Shown here: in pieces, positions 861 to 59,423 of the stretch
Layout: every line of letters starts with the position of its first letter
How positions within the stretch are numbered: position 1 is the stretch's first letter
Virus record (IMG/VR): IMGVR_UViG_3300035520_000529
Span: 44,210 to 108,209 of that record
Source: a virus
Taxonomy: Duplodnaviria; Caudoviricetes
DNA length: 64,000 bases
Reading direction: 5' to 3' (one strand)
Notes under the pieces: generated by a model
The model's database searches: none
The model's input: the letters and a program-made list of their open reading frames with translations, nothing else
What the model was told of the DNA's origin: nothing
Program-made: the position numbers and the translations under genes

Positions 861-1397
861 TTGAACTATCATGATATTAAAGTAGACGATTTAAACAATG
901 GAAGTGGTGTAAGAGTTACACTGTTTGTTAGTGGTTGTGAGCATAACTGTCTTGAATGTCACAACCCACAAACTCATGATGCTAATAGTGGACGATTGTT
1001 TGATGAGAATGCAAAGAACTATATTTTTGAGTATTTAGCTAAAGATTACATAGACGGCATTACATTAAGTGGTGGTGACCCTCTCTATCCTACAAATGTT
1101 GAGGATATTTTTGAACTAGTTAGTGAAATAAAAGATAAGTTTCATAACAAGACCATTTGGTTATATACTGGCTATACTTTAGACATTCCGAATATATTTA
1201 CTAGTAACAAGCCTAATTTATTAGAAAAACAGAGATATAATATTATTAGGTTATGTGATGTTGTAGTGGATGGTAACTTTGTTAAATCTTTAGCAGATAT
1301 TAATTATCCGTATGCAGGTAGCACTAACCAAAGAGTTATTGATATTCAAAAGAGTTTCTTTAACCAAAAACTAACTCTCTTTGATAATACTCTATAA
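861..1397 (+). CDS. nrdG: Anaerobic ribonucleotide reductase activating enzyme (radical SAM)
   Basis: NGSGVRVTLFVSGCEHNCLECHN (CxxxCxxC), GITLSGGDPL, GSTNQRVID. Confidence 0.93.
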   Translation: MNYHDIKVDDLNNGSGVRVTLFVSGCEHNCLECHNPQTHDANSGRLFDENAKNYIFEYLAKDYIDGITLSGGDPLYPTNVEDIFELVSEIKDKFHNKTIWLYTGYTLDIPNIFTSNKPNLLEKQRYNIIRLCDVVVDGNFVKSLADINYPYAGSTNQRVIDIQKSFFNQKLTLFDNTL

Positions 1398-1407
1398 AAG
1401 GAAAAAC

Positions 1408-1438
1408 TTAACCTGTACCCAAGTTGGGTACAGGTTAA
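1408..1438. promoter_or_regulatory. Perfect 31-bp palindrome: candidate parS/operator, or nrdG terminator
   Basis: TTAACCTGTACCCAA-G-TTGGGTACAGGTTAA directly upstream of the parA promoter. Confidence 0.55.
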
Positions 1439-1455
1439 AAAGTTTAAAATAATTC

Positions 1456-1484
1456 TTGACAATCTGATAAAGCAATGCTATAAT
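1456..1484 (+). promoter_or_regulatory. Consensus sigmaA promoter for parA-parB-hipA-like operon
   Basis: TTGACA-17 nt-TATAAT with extended -10 TG. Confidence 0.85.
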
Positions 1485-1518
1485 TAAATCATAAAAATTA
1501 ATTTTGGAGGTGCTTTTT

Positions 1519-2337
1519 ATGATAATTACAATATGTAATTTTAAAGGCGGTGTTGGAAAGACTACAACTTGTCATGCACTAGCAACAGCAAAAGCATTGC
1601 AAGGCAACAAAGTCTTAGTGTTGGACTTAGACGGACAACACTCCTTAACCACATCTTGTGGTGTGGATGTTAAAAAGTTTGGCAATAGTACAGTCACCAT
1701 TAGTGACCTAATTATGGCAGATATTAAAAACATTGACTATGATGTTGATGATGTTCATGAAGCTATCATTGAGTTGAAGAACATAAACTTAATTCCATCT
1801 ACTAAAGTTCTATCATTCTGTGATAAAGAATTGACAATATCTAAAAAAGCAAACGTACTTGAAAATATTCTAAACAAAGTTAAAGATGAGTACGATTACA
1901 TATTTTTGGATTGCTCACCAACTAGAAATAGTCTTTGTGAGAATGCCCTATACGCTACAGATAGTGTTATTATTCCAGTAGAATCGTATTATTTAGGTTC
2001 TGAGGGATTGTATGACTTTATAGAAATTGTAGATGAGATTAACAATAGGTTTAATAAAAATGTCTATATTGAGGGTATTATTTTAACTATGTTCCAAAAT
2101 GCAAACCTTTGCAAGACTGTTAAGTCCTATATTTTAGATGCAATTAAAGGCAAAAATGTGAAGAACGCTATTAAAAGCTCTAAAGGAAACGAAATAAAAG
2201 TGTTTGAGCAGACTATTCCACGTTCCGTAAAGGTTTCCGAAGCTGGGTTATATGGTAAATCTATTATTGAGTATATGCCAAACAATCCAGTATCTAAGCA
2301 GTATATGAAGATTGCAGAACAAATTAAGGTGGTGTAA
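1519..2337 (+). CDS. parA: ParA/Soj partition ATPase
   Basis: Deviant Walker A KGGVGKTT, DLDGQ, YDYIFLDCSP, IPRSVKVSEA; GGAGG RBS favours ATG 1519 over the ORF-track start 1504. Confidence 0.93.
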   Translation: MIITICNFKGGVGKTTTCHALATAKALQGNKVLVLDLDGQHSLTTSCGVDVKKFGNSTVTISDLIMADIKNIDYDVDDVHEAIIELKNINLIPSTKVLSFCDKELTISKKANVLENILNKVKDEYDYIFLDCSPTRNSLCENALYATDSVIIPVESYYLGSEGLYDFIEIVDEINNRFNKNVYIEGIILTMFQNANLCKTVKSYILDAIKGKNVKNAIKSSKGNEIKVFEQTIPRSVKVSEAGLYGKSIIEYMPNNPVSKQYMKIAEQIKVV

Positions 2338-2340
2338 ATT

Positions 2341-3258
2341 ATGGGATTGAAAGATAAACTATTAGAAAGCGGAAGTCTAACCGATTATATAGTGCAAACA
2401 AGTGTTGATAATGATGATATAGATATTATACAAATGATAAAGCTAACTAGTCTTGAAATTATCTCTAATCAACCTTTTAAGGAATATGTAAACACATCTA
2501 GATACCAAAGCTTAAAGGAAAGTGTTAAACTTAATGGAATTACCAACCCTTTGATAGTTAGGCTCACTGACGATGGAAAGTATCAAATACTATCGGGCAG
2601 ACATAGGTATTTAGTAGCTAAAGAACTTAATCTTTTAGAAGTACCTTGTATAGTTAAGAAAAATCTTTCTGATGACGATGCAGAGATAATCTTACTAGAC
2701 AGTAACCTATGTCAAAGAGAGGAACTATTACCATCAGAAAAGGCATTTTCATACAAGCAGAAGAACGATATTCTAAAAAGGAAAGGTGTGCGAACTGACC
2801 TATATAATGATAGTAATAAAGGCATAAAGTCGGTTGAAATTATTGCTAGTACTATGGGTAGTAGTAAGAGTGAAGTTATTCGTTACATAAGACTTACTAA
2901 CTTAATCCCTAAATTTTTAGATAGACTAGACAGTAAAACCATGCCAATTAGTGTGGGTTATGCTTTGAGTTTTTTGAGTGAAGATTCGCAAAAAATAGTC
3001 AATGATACTATCGAAAATAACGGTATAATAGTATCGTTAAAGATGGCGAATGCGTTGAAAGAACTATCTAACAATAGTATAAAAGTATCTAAAGAGGATA
3101 TTGAGAGAGTGTTATTAAATAGCAGTCCAGTTTCAACCAAAACATCTCTAAAAAAACTTAGAACTGACTATCTATCAACATACTTTTCGGATGATACCTC
3201 TGATGATGAAATGATTGAAACTATAAAGAAAGCTTTACAGTTGTACTTAAACAAATAG
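2341..3258 (+). CDS. parB: ParB/RepB/Spo0J family partition protein
   Basis: GITNPLIVR...YQILSGRHR (GxxR box), SNLCQRE.LLPSEKAF, HTH; directly after parA. Confidence 0.9.
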   Translation: MGLKDKLLESGSLTDYIVQTSVDNDDIDIIQMIKLTSLEIISNQPFKEYVNTSRYQSLKESVKLNGITNPLIVRLTDDGKYQILSGRHRYLVAKELNLLEVPCIVKKNLSDDDAEIILLDSNLCQREELLPSEKAFSYKQKNDILKRKGVRTDLYNDSNKGIKSVEIIASTMGSSKSEVIRYIRLTNLIPKFLDRLDSKTMPISVGYALSFLSEDSQKIVNDTIENNGIIVSLKMANALKELSNNSIKVSKEDIERVLLNSSPVSTKTSLKKLRTDYLSTYFSDDTSDDEMIETIKKALQLYLNK

Positions 3259-43056: not shown

Positions 43057-44572
43057 TATCAGTTAAATCGTTTCCAGACTCCTCACTAGTAGGTCTACCA
43101 TTGTTTTCAGAGGAATCCGCACTACTTGTAGTGTATGACGATTGCAAAGGCTTAAACTCATCAACAAGATTAAGAAAATCGTTCTCAGTAAAGCACATAC
43201 CCTCTAAAATGGATTGGTCGAAACCTAGGCTGGAAACTATAGCACTCTTAGTTGGAATGCCATATTGAGCATCTTTTAGGTATAAATCGTGCATATCTTT
43301 TTGATGGTAGTATGAAACGTCTAAAATATTTATTTGGAATTTAATAGTACCACTTAAACCTTTTAGAAGTCTATTAACCACTCTCTCAATCTGCCTATTT
43401 AATGAAAATGCTAAAGCTTCATCTGCCATTAAACTAATTTTCAAAGAAGTTGAACTTTGACTATCTCCACCAAATAATAGACTGCTTACACCTACATCAT
43501 TAAAATAATCCGCAACAGCTTCACTTACAGAGTTTGAGGAGTTGTCTCGCTCAAAAGTAATCTCTTGTAAGTCAGTAGGAGTCATATACAAGCCTACATT
43601 TTCGGGGAGTATGTTTAGTATCATTTCATAAAAGTTATCCATTTCATTGTGAGACATTAAAGGTTGTCCATCGCTACCAATAGGAACTTTTAAACCTAAC
43701 GCTTTATAGTTTTCAATCTCTGATGATGACAACTTAATGTCTTTATAGTCCTCAATATCATATAAGGCAGGTAAACATCCTAAAAATGGTATTACTGGTT
43801 TTAAACTATCCTCATTAACTTTTATGCAAAATTCGTTCTTATGGTCTAATTCTTGCCAACGATAATTATTCCTATCCTTTGCATAGTTTTGATACTTTAA
43901 AACAAATTCTTCTCCATATTGCTTTAATTCTCTCTCTAAATCGTTTCCGAACCTATCGAAATAGCTAAAATCGAACGAATATACATAACAACCATCACAG
44001 ATACCGCTGATGGCACAATAGTCTGGATTTAACGTCCTTATGTACACAGAATCTTTGTTTTTGTATATGTATCCATAAAAAACATCTTCTCTCCATGCTA
44101 TGATTTTAGCCTTTATCATTTCATGTTTTAAATTGAGAATTTCCAAAAAGTCACACGCTCTTTTATAGCACGTTTTGAAAGTCTTACCATTATCCTTTTG
44201 GTATTTTTCTTTATCGAATTTAAAAGGGCGAATGGTGTAATTTAGCGGTGTCATATTAGCAAAATATTGTATGGTTCTCTTATACTGCGGTGATACGTTG
44301 TACAAGTGCCTAGATAGGTCTCTTAAAACCTTTTCATTAGCTTCTGGATTGCTCATGAGGTTCAAGAGTTCGTCTTTACTTATGCCAAAATGATGATGCT
44401 TCATCTCGGAAACCTTACCATCTTTTAGACAATAACCATGGTATCCGTATATTCTTGCACGATTATCAGTAGGCTTTCTAGGATTTTTTAAATCCACCAA
44501 AGGAACTTCTAAAGAACTAAAATAGTTTTTCCAACTAACCTTATTTGAATCTTTATCGGCATTGTTTTCCAA
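43016..44572 (-). CDS. Portal protein
   Basis: 518 aa directly after the large terminase; acidic tail with GRP motif. Confidence 0.8.
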   Translation of the reverse strand: MENNADKDSNKVSWKNYFSSLEVPLVDLKNPRKPTDNRARIYGYHGYCLKDGKVSEMKHHHFGISKDELLNLMSNPEANEKVLRDLSRHLYNVSPQYKRTIQYFANMTPLNYTIRPFKFDKEKYQKDNGKTFKTCYKRACDFLEILNLKHEMIKAKIIAWREDVFYGYIYKNKDSVYIRTLNPDYCAISGICDGCYVYSFDFSYFDRFGNDLERELKQYGEEFVLKYQNYAKDRNNYRWQELDHKNEFCIKVNEDSLKPVIPFLGCLPALYDIEDYKDIKLSSSEIENYKALGLKVPIGSDGQPLMSHNEMDNFYEMILNILPENVGLYMTPTDLQEITFERDNSSNSVSEAVADYFNDVGVSSLLFGGDSQSSTSLKISLMADEALAFSLNRQIERVVNRLLKGLSGTIKFQINILDVSYYHQKDMHDLYLKDAQYGIPTKSAIVSSLGFDQSILEGMCFTENDFLNLVDEFKPLQSSYTTSSADSSENNGRPTSEESGNDLTDSGESTKERDVNDV

Positions 44573-53382: not shown

Positions 53383-54027
53383 TTATATAGTTTTCAAAAA
53401 AGCGTTGTACTCTTTAACGATGGTATCAAAGCTGTGTATTTTAAGAGCAACATTTTTGCTTTGAACAGATTCAAGAGCAAACTTCACTTGTATGCTAATA
53501 CTTGAAACCTTTTGACTAAACTTAATTAAGCCTAATTTATATAGTTCATGAATATAATCGCAAATAGTAATGTTTTTCTCTTTAACCATAGACATTACGT
53601 TCAATTGCTGAATGGTTAAGTTAACCCAATAATCATTATTAGGATTGACTTCGTGATTATACTTTGCTACACATAATAACGTAATAGCAATGTTTTTTAG
53701 GTTTTTATTAGGCAATTTACTAATAGTGTCTAACTCTTGTTGGTAGAGGTTTACGCACTCCACATGAGATAGTGTATGGGCGTGGTTGATAGAATAGTAT
53801 TCTATCATTTTGGCATATTTTTTATCTAAGTAATTTTCAACATTGCCCTTAAGGAAATCCATCAGCTTGTTGTAAATCTCAAAGTTACTTAACTTTAATT
53901 CATGTGCATAGTATCTCGATAACAATTCTAAACACTGACTTACATTTCTACAATTTATACCCTCGTTTAAGATTGATTTGCACTCTTTTAATTCGTTCAT
54001 AATCATTTTTTTATTCTTCACAGACAT
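53383..54027 (-). CDS. Hypothetical protein coupled to the RNA polymerase gene
   Basis: Overlaps the RNAP stop. Confidence 0.6.
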   Translation of the reverse strand: MSVKNKKMIMNELKECKSILNEGINCRNVSQCLELLSRYYAHELKLSNFEIYNKLMDFLKGNVENYLDKKYAKMIEYYSINHAHTLSHVECVNLYQQELDTISKLPNKNLKNIAITLLCVAKYNHEVNPNNDYWVNLTIQQLNVMSMVKEKNITICDYIHELYKLGLIKFSQKVSSISIQVKFALESVQSKNVALKIHSFDTIVKEYNAFLKTI

Positions 54028-55552
54028 CCACCATTTTAAACCTTTCCACGAATCTATGTCCGTTATATGTTATGTACTCGCCTTGAAAATCATCGTCAAC
54101 CATTTCTAGATACTTAATCTTTCTATTGTTTTTATCCAGTAAATTTTCTACAAAAACATCTCCACAAATATCCCAAGCAAATTGCTTACTATAGTTATTA
54201 GTGTAACATAAATCTAATACAATGTTCGCTAAAACGTACTTATTATTGCAAATCTCAAACGCTTTAGCTTTAAAACTTTCTTGAAACATCGCTCTGGCAC
54301 TGTATTGGCTATATTTATCCTTAGATTTGCCTTTATGACTAACTTTAAAGCTTTGAGTCTTCTCTTTATATTCGTTGTAAATGGCTTTTATACACTCAAA
54401 ATCGTGCGTTGAATACGCATAATCATTATTTTTTAAGATAGTATAATCGAACTGTGCAGTGTTAAATTTAGCATTGTTAAGTACGTTATTTAGGCTTTTT
54501 TCGACTTTGTGACAGATGAGGTTCATGGTAGAATCGTTGTCAGTGATAGGACTCAAACGTTTATACCAATTGATAAAGTCCATCTCATCTTCGGATAAAG
54601 AGATATTGTTTAACAAACTTTCTATGGGTTTTCCAAACTTCATTAAACACTTTTGAGATGATAGTTTGTAATAGTTGGTATATTCTTTCTTTAATTCGGG
54701 ATAATTGTAAATGAAAAAATACGGCTTTTTATTTGCTACAATGCTCTTATTAAAAGTATCATTACCCTCAATGTCATGTGCGTTGTACCAATATTTAGGC
54801 ATACTTTTACACTCAATCCCTTTGATTTTGTCTATGGCATCTTGCTGAAATTTTTGACCGCACATAATTCTATATTCAAGAGTTTTATATTCATTGGAAT
54901 CCTCATTGAACTGTGCTTTAACGTCAAACATTGCCGTAATCTTGTTAGTTGTAGAGCCTATCTCATCACCAAAACCACGCATATCTGATTGCACTAAGTT
55001 TTGGTTATTAATCAACACTTTTTTGCCTTTCCTTTGATTGCACATTATCGGTAAAGTTTTTCTAGTATTGTTCAGCAAAACTTTATTATTAGTAGTAAAA
55101 ACCATATCGCCATCAAAGTCACTTCCATTAAAACTTGCACAAGTTAAGTCCCATGCGTTTAAAATAGTTACTTCGGACATATATTTGTACCAATAATTCA
55201 CATCATCATTGTTGACTAAATTTAAAGTTCTAATGTTATTATGACAACTCATAGGGGAACGAAAACCTACTACTTGTGTGGTTTTTCTATCGTTCCAATA
55301 CTTAGAGTAGAACTCATTCTTTTTTAAAAGTCCCGTAGGTTCAATGCCAAAAATAGATTGACATAAAATGAATGGGTCTCCACTCATGAGACTAAAATTT
55401 CCCTCAACTTGCAAAACCCCCATCTTAGAATCGTTAATTTTCTTCGTAAGCATGGACTTTAACTTGCTTTGTACAAATGGATCATTGAGCATATGTTGGT
55501 CAATCATCAACGCTTTAATAAAGTCGGCTCCCAACTTATCAATACTATTCTC
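54011..55552 (-). CDS. YonO-like single-subunit RNA polymerase, exon 2 (catalytic)
   Basis: FRSP, NGSDFDGD metal-binding motif, AIDKIKG; frame is open back to GAG at 55552. Confidence 0.85.
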   Translation of the reverse strand, partial: ENSIDKLGADFIKALMIDQHMLNDPFVQSKLKSMLTKKINDSKMGVLQVEGNFSLMSGDPFILCQSIFGIEPTGLLKKNEFYSKYWNDRKTTQVVGFRSPMSCHNNIRTLNLVNNDDVNYWYKYMSEVTILNAWDLTCASFNGSDFDGDMVFTTNNKVLLNNTRKTLPIMCNQRKGKKVLINNQNLVQSDMRGFGDEIGSTTNKITAMFDVKAQFNEDSNEYKTLEYRIMCGQKFQQDAIDKIKGIECKSMPKYWYNAHDIEGNDTFNKSIVANKKPYFFIYNYPELKKEYTNYYKLSSQKCLMKFGKPIESLLNNISLSEDEMDFINWYKRLSPITDNDSTMNLICHKVEKSLNNVLNNAKFNTAQFDYTILKNNDYAYSTHDFECIKAIYNEYKEKTQSFKVSHKGKSKDKYSQYSARAMFQESFKAKAFEICNNKYVLANIVLDLCYTNNYSKQFAWDICGDVFVENLLDKNNRKIKYLEMVDDDFQGEYITYNGHRFVERFKMVDVCEE

Positions 55553-57567
55553 CCGCTACGATAAATACATACAAACTTAAACAAATCTATAATATTTATA
55601 CTATGACGTTCTCACGAAACGTCTTCCTACTTCAACGAGTCCGATTTTGCTAACACATGAGCGTTAAGCTACTTTCGTTTGGTGTAACTCTCCATAGGCT
55701 TAAATTCCCTAGTAGCGATAGGTACACATTAGCATAATCTTTTAAGTGATTCTATGCTAATTGATAGTTTGCTAAATTAATACTTGCATTGAAATCTCTG
55801 TCGGCAACGTAGCCACAAGCATCACAACGATATACTCTGTCTGATAGTTTCAAATCCTTCTTGACGTTTCCACAACAAGAACACATCTTTGAACTTGGAT
55901 AGAACTTATCAGCTTGGACAAACTTAATGCCAAAAGTTTCGCACTTATACTTCATTTGACGTATAAACTCATAAAACCTCTGTTGAGATATTGCCTTAGA
56001 TAGATGTTTATTCTTCAACATACCTTTGACGTTTAAAGACTCCATAACTATGCGAGATGGCTTGGTTTTCACTATCTCGGTAGTAGTTTGGTGCGTGTAA
56101 TCGTTACGGATATCGGTTAGCCTTTTGTGGATAAGTCTAATCTTAGCGTTCTGCCTTTGGACGTTCTTACAATCCTTTAATGGACGTTTCCATATAGGTC
56201 TACGCTTAATATCGTAGCTTTGCGTGTTGTTAATAAGCATCCTTGAGAGCTTTCTCTGCTCTCTTTTCAAACGCTTTTCCAAACTTCTAACACGCTTAGT
56301 CTTATTGATGTTCTTGTAGACCGTTCCATTAGACACAGTCGCTAACTCTTTGACACCTAAGTCTATACCTAAACTTTCACCAGTGAGTTCGTACTCTACC
56401 GCAGAAACCTCATATCCAACAGACAAGTACCAGTACTTTCCGTCATAAGATATTCTAGAATTAGAGTAGCGTTCACCATTCTTTAACTTAGGCAATGGCT
56501 TAGTAGTCTTGACTACACCTAACTTTTCGCCTTGAAAACCATTTTGAACTCTTTTCAAACTCTCATAGTTGACGTAAAAGCTAGGTTTACTCCTATGTTT
56601 AGACTTATATTTTGGCTTTCCTGATATGCCTTTGAAAAACCTTTTAAGAGCGTTATCTGCATCTTTGATAGCTTGTTTCATAACGTTACTACTAACTTCT
56701 TTCAACCATGTGTGGGTAGTAGGCTTTAACTCATTATTAATGTGTTTTCTGACTGCTCCCTCACTAATTGACTTGCTACCAGTTTCACCATTCACAAGGT
56801 ATTCATGATACACTCTTTCGTTCTCCGAAAGGTAGTAGTTGTATGCCCATCGTGAAGTTCCTGCACTTTTCCAAAACAGAGTTTCTTGCTCTTTGGTAGG
56901 TTTTAACCTAATCTTAATTGCTCTTAGCATTATCTCACCTCACTTATTTGATACTTACATTATACCACAAAAGTGACGTAATTACAAGGTTTTTTAGCAA
57001 ACTATTTGTACCTTATTGATACCAAATTTATAGATTCTTTAGTTATATATTTATCTCATTCACATTAGAACGCAACTTCTAATGCAGTCTTTCTGTTACC
57101 AGTAGACCTCTAACGCTTTCACGTTAGCGTAGACTATATCTTCATCTATGATTGAACCATAGAGCCACATTTTTCTTCCGCCATTAGCTTGCGGTTTTAC
57201 TCTCCCTCAAGGAGATAGTCTTTGGAGGTCTTCCATGCCTTTCGGTTTAGGACTTTCCCTGCTAAACACCCATTGTTATGACACTTAGGACTAACGTTTC
57301 CAGTGTGTCACGCATCGCCTTTCACTGGCACTGATTAGTTTTTATTTCACCTTATGCTATCCATACTATTTTTTTGCTTTCGCACCATTCAGCTTATCGT
57401 TTCCAATTACTGTTTAGGTTGTATGACTTTAGGGGTTCAAAGCATTTAACGTGGAGTTTCCACCAGTCGCCCGATGGAAAGGGCTTTCTGTTATATATTT
57501 TCCTTAAAAATATACACAAGTACATATTTGTTTATGCTTGTCTATATTTTTAGTAACAGTTTTGTTA
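55553..57567 (-). mobile_element. Non-autonomous IS607-type IStron (group I intron + tnpB + omegaRNA, no tnpA), 2015 nt
   Basis: CCAAAGACUAU and GAAGAUAUAGUCU core motifs at about 57130-57225, P9 CUAACGU-GAAA-GCGUUAG; GG core (GTTGGG|TAAC, TAGCGG|GAG); removal gives in-frame FLKGYFVG-ENSIDKLGADFIKALM. Confidence 0.88.
55752..56930 (-). CDS. tnpB: TnpB RNA-guided nuclease (IS607 type)
   Basis: GIDLG, VMESL, DRDFNAS, Zn finger; own promoter TTGTAA-17-TATAAT at 56959-56987. Confidence 0.95.
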   Translation of the reverse strand: MLRAIKIRLKPTKEQETLFWKSAGTSRWAYNYYLSENERVYHEYLVNGETGSKSISEGAVRKHINNELKPTTHTWLKEVSSNVMKQAIKDADNALKRFFKGISGKPKYKSKHRSKPSFYVNYESLKRVQNGFQGEKLGVVKTTKPLPKLKNGERYSNSRISYDGKYWYLSVGYEVSAVEYELTGESLGIDLGVKELATVSNGTVYKNINKTKRVRSLEKRLKREQRKLSRMLINNTQSYDIKRRPIWKRPLKDCKNVQRQNAKIRLIHKRLTDIRNDYTHQTTTEIVKTKPSRIVMESLNVKGMLKNKHLSKAISQQRFYEFIRQMKYKCETFGIKFVQADKFYPSSKMCSCCGNVKKDLKLSDRVYRCDACGYVADRDFNASINLANYQLA

Positions 57568-58800
57568 CCCAACAAAATATCCTTTTAAGAATAGGATGGT
57601 CTTGTTAATATCGTTAGTAAGAACATCATTGATATTATTAATTGTAGGTTTAATTAACGCATCTATGTCATTTTCAGTTAACTTATAACTTTGTAGATAT
57701 TGATAGTTTAAGTTTCTAATGTTGTCTAAAGATTTTGGGGTAACCTTAGTAACACTGAATGTAAACCCATTAACATTACACTTATTAACATAATCTTCAT
57801 AACTAGAATAACTACTCCAAAGTTTTAACATACTTTCTGTAATGATTACATCAACCTTTGTGATGTCTCTTTCATTGCCCCAAACGTCAGTAACTATGTG
57901 GTTTTTAGCAAATTTATCTGCAAACGCATGAAAATCGAAACAGAAAAGCATACCTTTTAGAAACGCATTCCTAATGCAACACCCACTAAACCTATAGTCC
58001 AATTTTAGCTCTTCAGACCATTTTTCTGCAAAACTAGGAGATATTAGTCCAAAGCCATCATTAGCATTATTCTCAATAGTATCAGTTTTAATCTCCAAAA
58101 TAGGCTCGTTTGAGGTATCACTGTCACTAACAGATATGTAAGTATCTTGAAAGTTAGTTAGGCAATCTTTTACAACTATAAAATTAGGAGTGCTAACTGG
58201 AGTCGAAGAACTACACGCTAATGACAAATATGCGTTATATTTGCTAGGAATAAACTTATCATTTGGGTTTCTACCATTCTCCAAACGATTGAGTAACTCA
58301 TCATGAATGCGTTCGCTAACAAACACAACTGTGGACTTTTTAAGCTGTCCTGCAGTGCCTAACAATCTAATAAACTTAGTGCCGTTAATATAAAATCCTT
58401 TCACTGCTCTTTTATAATCGGTTTTGTTATTAGCTACTAAACACAAGTAGTCTTTTCTAAACGATAACTCGTTAATTTTAGAGTATATTTCTTTAATTTC
58501 ATTCCTGGAATTGTAGTTATTTTTGTCTTTTTTAATGACTTTCAATCTACTTCTAAGAGTCTGTAGCAACGTATCTTGAGCGATTTTATCTACTCCGTTA
58601 ATATCGTCTATAAACCTTAAAGTTGTACTATCTGCTAAAGCGATAATTTCATCATTTTGCAAAGCTTCTTCAAAGGTTATAGATAAGTTCCAATCACAAG
58701 ATTTCAAGCGGTTGGTGTCTATTTTAAGCACATATTTCTGTGCGGATTGATGTTTAGCCATATAAAAAATCATCCTTTTGTAATTAATATTTATTACCAT
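57568..58800 (-). CDS. YonO-like RNA polymerase, exon 1
   Basis: SKYNAY.SL..S, NDGFGLISP, IRNAFLKGM, LNYQYLQS motifs of cellular-RdRP-like phage polymerases. Confidence 0.82.
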
Positions 58801-58916: not shown

Positions 58917-59423
58917 TTACTTAATTCTTAATACGTCTGCACGTTCACCAAGATGTCCGTAGGTAGTATCACCAGTGACTTCTATATACTTCCTAATGGC
59001 TTCATTATTTGGAGTAGTTGACACTTTAACTAACTCTATTGGTAGGTCTGTAACATCGCAAGTTAGTTGTAAAGGTGCAAGTCCACCACTCTTTGAGATA
59101 CTAAAATTGTGTAAAGGAGTTTGGAATTTTGTCTTTCCTGTGAGTTTCATGGCATCCATTAAGCTATTTTTCATGAAAGAAACTCTATTTTCAAAGTGTT
59201 TTTTTCTAGCAGATAGTCTTTTTTCTTCTTCTTTTATATCAAAAATATAGCCTTGTAAACACTGAATTATGGTGTAATAGTTCTCAGCTTTAACCTCAAA
59301 TTCGCCATCAACAGCTTCTAAGGTGTCAATAAGGCATTGTATTGTGTCTGTATTAATGTCCTCATCTTCTAATAGATGCAATAATTCTTGGTAATTTTCA
59401 CTCAATTCTCTTAAAGTACTCAT
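58917..59423 (-). CDS. Siphovirus Gp157-family protein
   Basis: MSTLRELS..Y..L, DTLEAV.GEFEVKAENY, EEKRL..RKK..EN. Confidence 0.8.
   Translation of the reverse strand: MSTLRELSENYQELLHLLEDEDINTDTIQCLIDTLEAVDGEFEVKAENYYTIIQCLQGYIFDIKEEEKRLSARKKHFENRVSFMKNSLMDAMKLTGKTKFQTPLHNFSISKSGGLAPLQLTCDVTDLPIELVKVSTTPNNEAIRKYIEVTGDTTYGHLGERADVLRIK

Follow-up and report, generated by a model that had tools for sequence, protein, structure and literature searches.

An SPbeta/c-st-like phage with a probable tnpA-less IS607-type IStron in its YonO-like RNA polymerase gene

Here we describe an interrupted phage RNA polymerase gene in a 64,000-nucleotide stretch of viral DNA (the window, meaning the whole stretch analysed), cut from the 108-kb IMG/VR virus record IMGVR_UViG_3300035520_000529 at positions 44,210 to 108,209. 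The gene and the element that splits it lie wholly on the minus strand of the window. In all probability the element is an IS607-type IStron of group B that lacks tnpA, inserted in phase 0 directly after TGGG in a gene for a YonO-like RNA polymerase that belongs to an SPbeta/c-st-like phage. Its anatomy, its homology to known IStrons, a conserved RNA structure and the open reading frame (ORF) restored by its removal carry this identification, and from them we infer a mechanism in which splicing would compete with omega-RNA formation and homing. The gene and the element are made up of the following features.

58800-57568, minus strand: YonO-like RNA polymerase gene, exon 1 with 411 codons, ending ...TTT GTT GGG (from the ORF list)
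57567-55553, minus strand: whole IStron, 2015 nucleotides, start TAACAAAACTGTTAC, end TTTATCGTAGCGG, with the tail ...ATTTATCGTAGCGG at 55553
57535-57110, minus strand: predicted group I ribozyme core, P2-P9, subgroup IA2 type (Rfam RF00028, full model 1-253)
57484-57481, minus strand: internal guide sequence GCCC, predicted P1 partner of the exon GGG and the first intron U
57058-57020, minus strand: 5' arm of the AU-rich inverted-repeat stem closing the cargo loop (RNA duplex prediction)
56987-56959, minus strand: promoter-like site before tnpB, sigma-70-like, TTGTAA-17-TATAAT with an upstream TG
56930-55752, minus strand: tnpB, 392 amino acids (Pfam HTH_OrfB_IS605, OrfB_IS605 and Cas12f1-like_TNB)
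55715-55553, minus strand: omega-RNA scaffold and right end, comprising RAGATH-18, a hairpin, a terminal hairpin and CGG
55552-55533, minus strand: predicted omega-RNA guide, the first ~20 nucleotides of exon 2, from the CboIStron architecture
55552-54011, minus strand: RNA polymerase gene, exon 2 with 513 codons and a stop codon (54013-54011), beginning GAG AAT AGT

Interrupted polymerase gene

Exon 1 is directly abutted by an in-frame stop, the TAA at 57567-57565, which consists of the element's first three bases. Deleting the insert in silico joins the two exons in phase 0 at GTTGGG/GAGAAT and yields a single ORF of 924 amino acids, with the catalytic DFDGD motif at residues 556-560 of the joined protein, encoded by exon 2 at 55120-55106. 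Six uninterrupted homologues were recovered by tblastn (Enterocloster phage PMBT24, Bacillus phage BUCT082 and four IMG/VR contigs), and the alignment with them passes through residue 411/412 with zero residues gained or lost. This in-frame junction at a single alignment column, without gain or loss of residues, argues that the insert reflects more than chance.

Several comparisons point to the same gene family. Exon 1 matches the Pfam RdRP family PF05183 (E 3.6e-10), which matches exon 1 only, and it matches annotated yonO genes by tblastn. The two exons align to consecutive parts of one profile, phrog_8308 (847 positions), exon 1 covering 56-405 and exon 2 covering 418-837. By blastp the joined protein matches YonO of phage Goe12 (839 amino acids) with an E of 1e-30 over residues 134-683, a range that spans the junction, and DFDGD falls in the same aligned block as the YonO DNDGD (residue 535). 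Built from the relatives, a profile matches YonO with an E of 2e-59. A PDB sequence search with each half of the protein returned no match. The interrupted gene is thus predicted to encode a YonO-like single-chain RNA polymerase. In SPbeta, transcription of the late operon is the work of the RNA polymerase YonO (Forrest et al. 2017, PMC5467207), and a similar late-transcription role is assumed here by analogy.

An initial annotation of this DNA had described a YonO-type polymerase gene split by a tnpB-only IStron. Its coordinates and strings (GTTGGG, TAA, TAGCGG, GAG AAT AGT, the 924-amino-acid product and the exon 2 DFDGD) were all correct on direct reading; the comparison with YonO upholds the polymerase family it named, and the role in SPbeta late transcription that it attributed to such polymerases is documented in the work just cited.

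Element boundaries and predicted ribozyme

The TGGG at 57571-57568, the last bases of exon 1, doubles as the transposon-adjacent motif (TAM) and as the 5' strand of the predicted P1. The boundary TGGG/TAAC...CGTAGCGG recurs at unrelated sites in seven related elements, comprising SrISt1, CbISt3 and five copies on IMG/VR viral contigs. For example, SrISt1 has ATGGG followed by TAACAAAACTGTTAC ... ATTTATCGTAGCGG, and CbISt3 has TTGGG followed by AAACTAAACTGTTAT ... TTTTTCGTATCGG. The boundaries found here, GTTGGG/TAAC ... TAGCGG with a 5' exon not ending in U, are those of group B.

A scan of a 721-nucleotide stretch gave the RF00028 match, at 40.3 bits and an E of 9e-9. The core has 78-83% column identity to introns of known IStrons, the 5' 550 nucleotides of the element share 83% with those of SrISt1 and CbISt3, and compensatory changes occur at 52 of the 133 consensus pairs in a seven-sequence alignment (RNAalifold). 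In this alignment the exon GGG pairs with CCC (57483-57481) in all seven family members, with the first intron U facing G57484, and the P1 predicted here fits the published description of P1 in group B (PMC4227781). Together these features support a group I ribozyme of the IA2 type, lying in the sense orientation with respect to the host gene.

Downstream of the ribozyme core, the 5' inverted-repeat arm is predicted to pair with 55601-55560 over ~35 bp in an AU-rich stem of -21.3 kcal/mol that loops out the cargo. Inverted-repeat stems of 15-34 bp and >80% AU that enclose the ORF region have been described for group B IStrons (PMC4227781), and the modelled stem corresponds to that description.

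Cargo and right end

The sigma-70-like site is the single promoter-like site in the element and stands 29 nucleotides ahead of the tnpB ATG; in tnpA-bearing relatives, a promoter-like TTGACA...TATAAT occupies the same place ahead of tnpA. TnpB itself matches solved structures (PDB 8iaz, E 2e-78; ISDra2 TnpB, E 8e-35). When it is aligned to solved TnpBs, the RuvC Asp-Glu-Asp residues are intact (GIDLG188, VMESLN295, ADRDFN376), as are the zinc-finger motifs CSCC350 and CDAC369, so the protein carries the motifs expected of an RNA-guided nuclease. No tnpA or tnpA remnant was detected in the element by tblastn with three IS607 TnpAs (best E 0.29), and the element accordingly has no ORF A, the IS607 serine recombinase that autonomous members carry. 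This loss does not disqualify it as an IStron, because both delta-ORF A elements and elements with ORF B only are among those catalogued by Tourasse 2014.

At the right end, RAGATH-18 lies at 55698-55624 (Rfam RF03064, 78.4 bits against a gathering score of 44.9) and the terminal CGG at 55555-55553. When the right end is folded alone, the terminal hairpin is built from two parts, the 3' inverted-repeat arm (55601-55560) and a direct repeat that immediately precedes this arm. Since that arm is used in both folds, the local omega-RNA hairpin and the long-range ribozyme stem would be alternatives. By analogy with CboIStron, the guide would target TGGG plus the start of exon 2 in an intron-less allele.

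Most other points of the initial annotation hold up as well, namely the absence of tnpA, a promoter belonging to tnpB (in the form of the one promoter-like site), and a stem by which the cargo is looped out. Its statement that TGGG is the TAM of the Clostridium botulinum IS607 IStron is confirmed by the literature (10.1101/2023.11.20.567912), and the tnpB-only IStron identity is supported by Rfam, Pfam, homologue alignments, the family ends and published work.

Proposed mechanism

The primary transcript of the polymerase gene would include the element, and folding of the ribozyme would need both the inverted-repeat stem and P1. The folded ribozyme would then excise 57567-55553 and ligate GTTGGG to GAGAAT, giving an mRNA for the 924-amino-acid polymerase. 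On unspliced RNA, translation would halt at the element's TAA and leave a 411-amino-acid fragment that lacks the aspartate triad. In the alternative fold, the right end may form omega-RNA locally and bind TnpB, itself expressed from the internal promoter, in which case splicing would be blocked. TnpB with omega-RNA could be guided to cut an intron-less allele at TGGG plus the exon 2 start, and repair of the break would copy the element in, which amounts to homing.

This scheme follows the published IS607 IStron model, in which TGGG serves CboTnpB as its TAM and TnpA as its target, and TnpB lowers splicing. In CboIStron the scaffold ends in UCGG, and TnpB with omega-RNA antagonises splicing (Zedaveinyte et al. 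2023, 10.1101/2023.11.20.567912); the terminal CGG is required (PMC13521648). The splice cut in the published model falls between scaffold and guide, making splicing and guide maturation mutually exclusive. Additionally, BcISt1 splices in vivo, and group B elements have GG-ending targets and frequently lose ORF A (PMC4227781). The model fits the element in the polymerase gene in each of its parts. The occupied site presents GCGG in the TAM position, with a C at the position published as the most discriminating, so self-cutting should be avoided, consistent with self-avoidance.

Points against this interpretation and alternative explanations

Several points weigh against reading the insert as a functional IStron. 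The RF00028 score of 40.3 bits falls short of the gathering score, which is 50, and scans of 7 kb and 64 kb did not show the match; we consider this weakness offset by the homology to the SrISt1 and CbISt3 introns and by the covariation. Inspection by eye for a P10 pairing with the 3' exon found none that was convincing, and the 3' exon is reported in published work to influence splicing efficiency. Moreover, an intron-less allele of the polymerase gene was not found in a search of viral and metagenome contigs with the 18-nucleotide spliced junction: there were no matches in viral contigs, and the 42 in metagenome contigs are chance matches, since none of them encodes a homologue of the polymerase. 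Finally, the viral contig is incomplete (64% estimated completeness), and the phage could be defective.

This last point leads to the possibility that the insertion is recent and disruptive, in a defective or decaying phage whose polymerase gene is dead and carries the element as a mere passenger. The incomplete contig would agree with this, as would the three IS607-type elements and one further intron in the window, and the failure to find either an intron-less allele or an identical second copy. However, neither exon contains a stop or a frameshift and the catalytic motif is retained, the element is sense-oriented, in phase and endowed with an intact ribozyme, and an equally splice-compatible interruption is seen in this phage's tape-measure gene. 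We therefore regard a dead gene as quite improbable.

Split two-barrel RNA polymerases occur in other phages. Another possibility is that splicing is no longer efficient and that the halves are made separately, exon 1 up to the TAA and exon 2 from a TTG at 55534, to assemble as a split two-barrel polymerase like beta/beta-prime. The break does separate the PF05183-matched region in exon 1 from the DFDGD barrel in exon 2, and a GGGAG lies ~15 nucleotides upstream of the in-frame TTG. That spacing is long, however; the base pairs conserved in its family are retained by the ribozyme, the exons meet precisely and in phase, the six nearest homologues are all single-chain at the junction point, and interrupted relatives also carry group I introns as inserts. 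Separately made subunits are thus highly improbable in our view.

Splicing by the canonical group I rule (GTT/GGGTAA...CGTAG/CGGGAG) would be in frame and would make residue 411 Arg instead of Gly, and although U at -1 and an intron-terminal G are both present 3 nucleotides upstream and residue 411 sits in a variable alignment column, so that protein comparison cannot choose, we rejected these sites as extremely unlikely because seven family members share the TGGG/TAAC and ...CGG boundary, P1 pairs the exon GGG with CCC in all seven, and group B 5' exons are documented as not U-ending, with measured junctions in the literature at the transposon ends.

Other elements and genes in the window

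Besides the IStron in the polymerase gene, the window contains two further IS607-type elements and a plain intron.

29675-27226, minus strand: full IStron (tnpA and tnpB) in the large tail tape-measure gene
26461-26082, minus strand: plain group I intron in the tape-measure gene (53 bits)
49510-47370, minus strand: third IS607-type element, between two ORFs, with tnpA 49318-48713, tnpB 48720-47554 and RAGATH-18 47503-47433

The tape-measure IStron starts TAACGAAAAC like the element in the polymerase gene, and its flanks end in AG, not GG. The third element has a complementary AT-rich repeat at both ends and a right end of ...CAGTAACGG; it was considered as an IStron and rejected, as no group I match appeared even in a 401-nucleotide Rfam scan, and it is classed as a plain IS607 element.

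The initial annotation had suggested that TnpA supplied in trans by these elements might mobilise the tnpA-less copy. This is doubtful. Their TnpBs (tape-measure IStron and plain IS607 element) are 52% and 44% identical to that of the element in the polymerase gene, against 68% and 66% for SrISt1 and CbISt3, and the left end and terminal dinucleotide of the tape-measure IStron differ from those of the element in the polymerase gene (AG versus GG). The divergent TnpBs and differing ends mark the three elements as separate invasions, and cross-mobilisation by the two TnpAs of the window is unsupported.

The gene just upstream of the polymerase gene (58917-59423, minus strand) encodes a Mu Gam-like protein of the kind that protects DNA ends (phrog_253, E 2e-34). 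Such a neighbour could bear on the fate of double-strand breaks made by TnpB.

Introns in related polymerase genes

Related polymerase genes are also interrupted, at other sites. The YonO-like genes of c-st and of Enterocloster phage CB473P3 are broken inside DFDGD, between residues 558 and 559 in the numbering of the window protein, by inserts with full-length group I matches: ~320 nucleotides in c-st (1761-2079 of its stretch, 25 bits) and ~430 nucleotides in CB473P3 (1645-2073 of its stretch, 39 bits). A second insertion site in the same polymerase family lies near residue 651. There, CB473P3 carries ~465 nucleotides (2360-2826 of its stretch) with a partial group I match of 27 bits, and CB473P1 carries ~1125 nucleotides (1927-3053 of its stretch) that hold a 250-amino-acid ORF; both residue-651 inserts are missing from PMBT24, whose first exon is 99% identical.

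We considered whether the YonO region of c-st is likewise split by an IStron and rejected this, as the break within the gene is a plain intron of ~320 nucleotides and the IS607 element ISCbt4-b (OrfA and OrfB) lies downstream, at c-st 161633-163394 (1334-3095 of the stretch), between the ORF that follows the YonO homologue and an HU-like gene. Its position suggests that the polymerase neighbourhood attracts IS607-type elements in c-st too. The c-st annotation treats the polymerase pieces as distinct ORFs, labelled 'N-ter only' and 'C-ter only'.

Significance

The window offers a clean and fully annotated IS607-type IStron, placed in a phage gene that the entire late programme should require. 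At a single site three codes overlap and are all legible, namely the TnpB TAM, the GG core of IS607 recombination and the P1 pairing of the ribozyme. As the transposase is absent, this phage copy would form a natural test bed for asking whether TnpB and omega-RNA alone can spread an intron between co-infecting phages. More broadly, the YonO-like polymerase genes of Clostridia-type SPbeta-like phages attract introns, even inside the catalytic DFDGD, and such intron-prone genes matter for annotation because they are deposited as 'N-ter only' or 'C-ter only' ORFs.

Repression of splicing by TnpB has been published for CboIStron (10.1101/2023.11.20.567912); the initial annotation had proposed it here as a possible gate on late expression. 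It is conceivable, though we think it unlikely, that the element has been co-opted as a developmental timer, with TnpB from the internal promoter holding back splicing of the polymerase transcript and the ratio of the two folds setting when polymerase has built up sufficiently for the late operon to fire. If this were true, the late programme would be a chain of RNA-level checkpoints, since in the late operon the tape-measure gene requires a further two ribozyme splices.

Comparison with known IStrons

The polymerase itself resembles YonO of SPbeta as a predicted single-chain two-barrel RNA polymerase with the aspartate triad aligned. The relationship is distant (25% identity over 550 residues, 924 against 839 amino acids), whereas the homologues of c-st and the Enterocloster phages are closer, at 38-48%.

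Among IStrons, SrISt1 (Selenomonas ruminantium pSRC1) and CbISt3 (Clostridium phage c-st), both from PMC4227781, share with the present element their ends, the TGGG site, the IA2 intron and RAGATH-18, and the AU-rich inverted-repeat stem described for group B in the same paper is present here too. Unlike it, both carry a full IS607 tnpA, of which the element in the polymerase gene keeps not even a remnant, and the host gene of CbISt3 is YomI-like (tape-measure/transglycosylase), not a polymerase gene. CboIStron, the co-resident 'IStron lacking TnpA' (C. botulinum BKT015925 phage-plasmid) and the CseIStrons are likewise of the IS607 family, with TGGG as TAM and a CGG end (10.1101/2023.11.20.567912; PMC13521648). 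In these elements, as predicted here, the omega-RNA overlaps the 3' splice site, and the setting is again a phage or phage-plasmid. Their published model of competition between splicing and omega-RNA is consistent with the two alternative folds predicted here; compared with CboIStron, the right end is GCGG instead of UCGG and the interrupted gene is a phage RNA polymerase. CbISt4 and CsISt1, group B elements with a truncated or absent ORF A, are alike by description in being tnpB-only or delta-tnpA, and CbISt4 (2053 nucleotides) is close in size to the present element (2015 nucleotides).

Three other tnpA-less relatives in IMG/VR (L061, L068 and L065) differ from the present element in the sequence between the inverted-repeat arm and tnpB, which suggests that tnpA loss is recurrent. 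In L065, the tnpA-less relative on IMGVR_UViG_3300019477_000078, an apparent in-frame TAG stands at the start of tnpB (…CCGACAAAATAGCAAGAA…, ~2040-2070 of its stretch), and that copy may be decaying. Within the flanks examined, none of the eight loci with related IMG/VR IStrons has a homologue of the polymerase beside it.

Group B IStrons, their tnpA-less forms and copies in C. botulinum phages and phage-plasmids, including Clostridium phage c-st, have already been described (Tourasse 2014, PMC4227781; Zedaveinyte 2023 preprint). The element is therefore of a known type, the IS607-type IStron, and not a new kind of system, but it is a clear new example of that type. What is new here is its target, a YonO-like RNA polymerase gene, together with the occurrence of plain group I introns at other sites in related polymerase genes.

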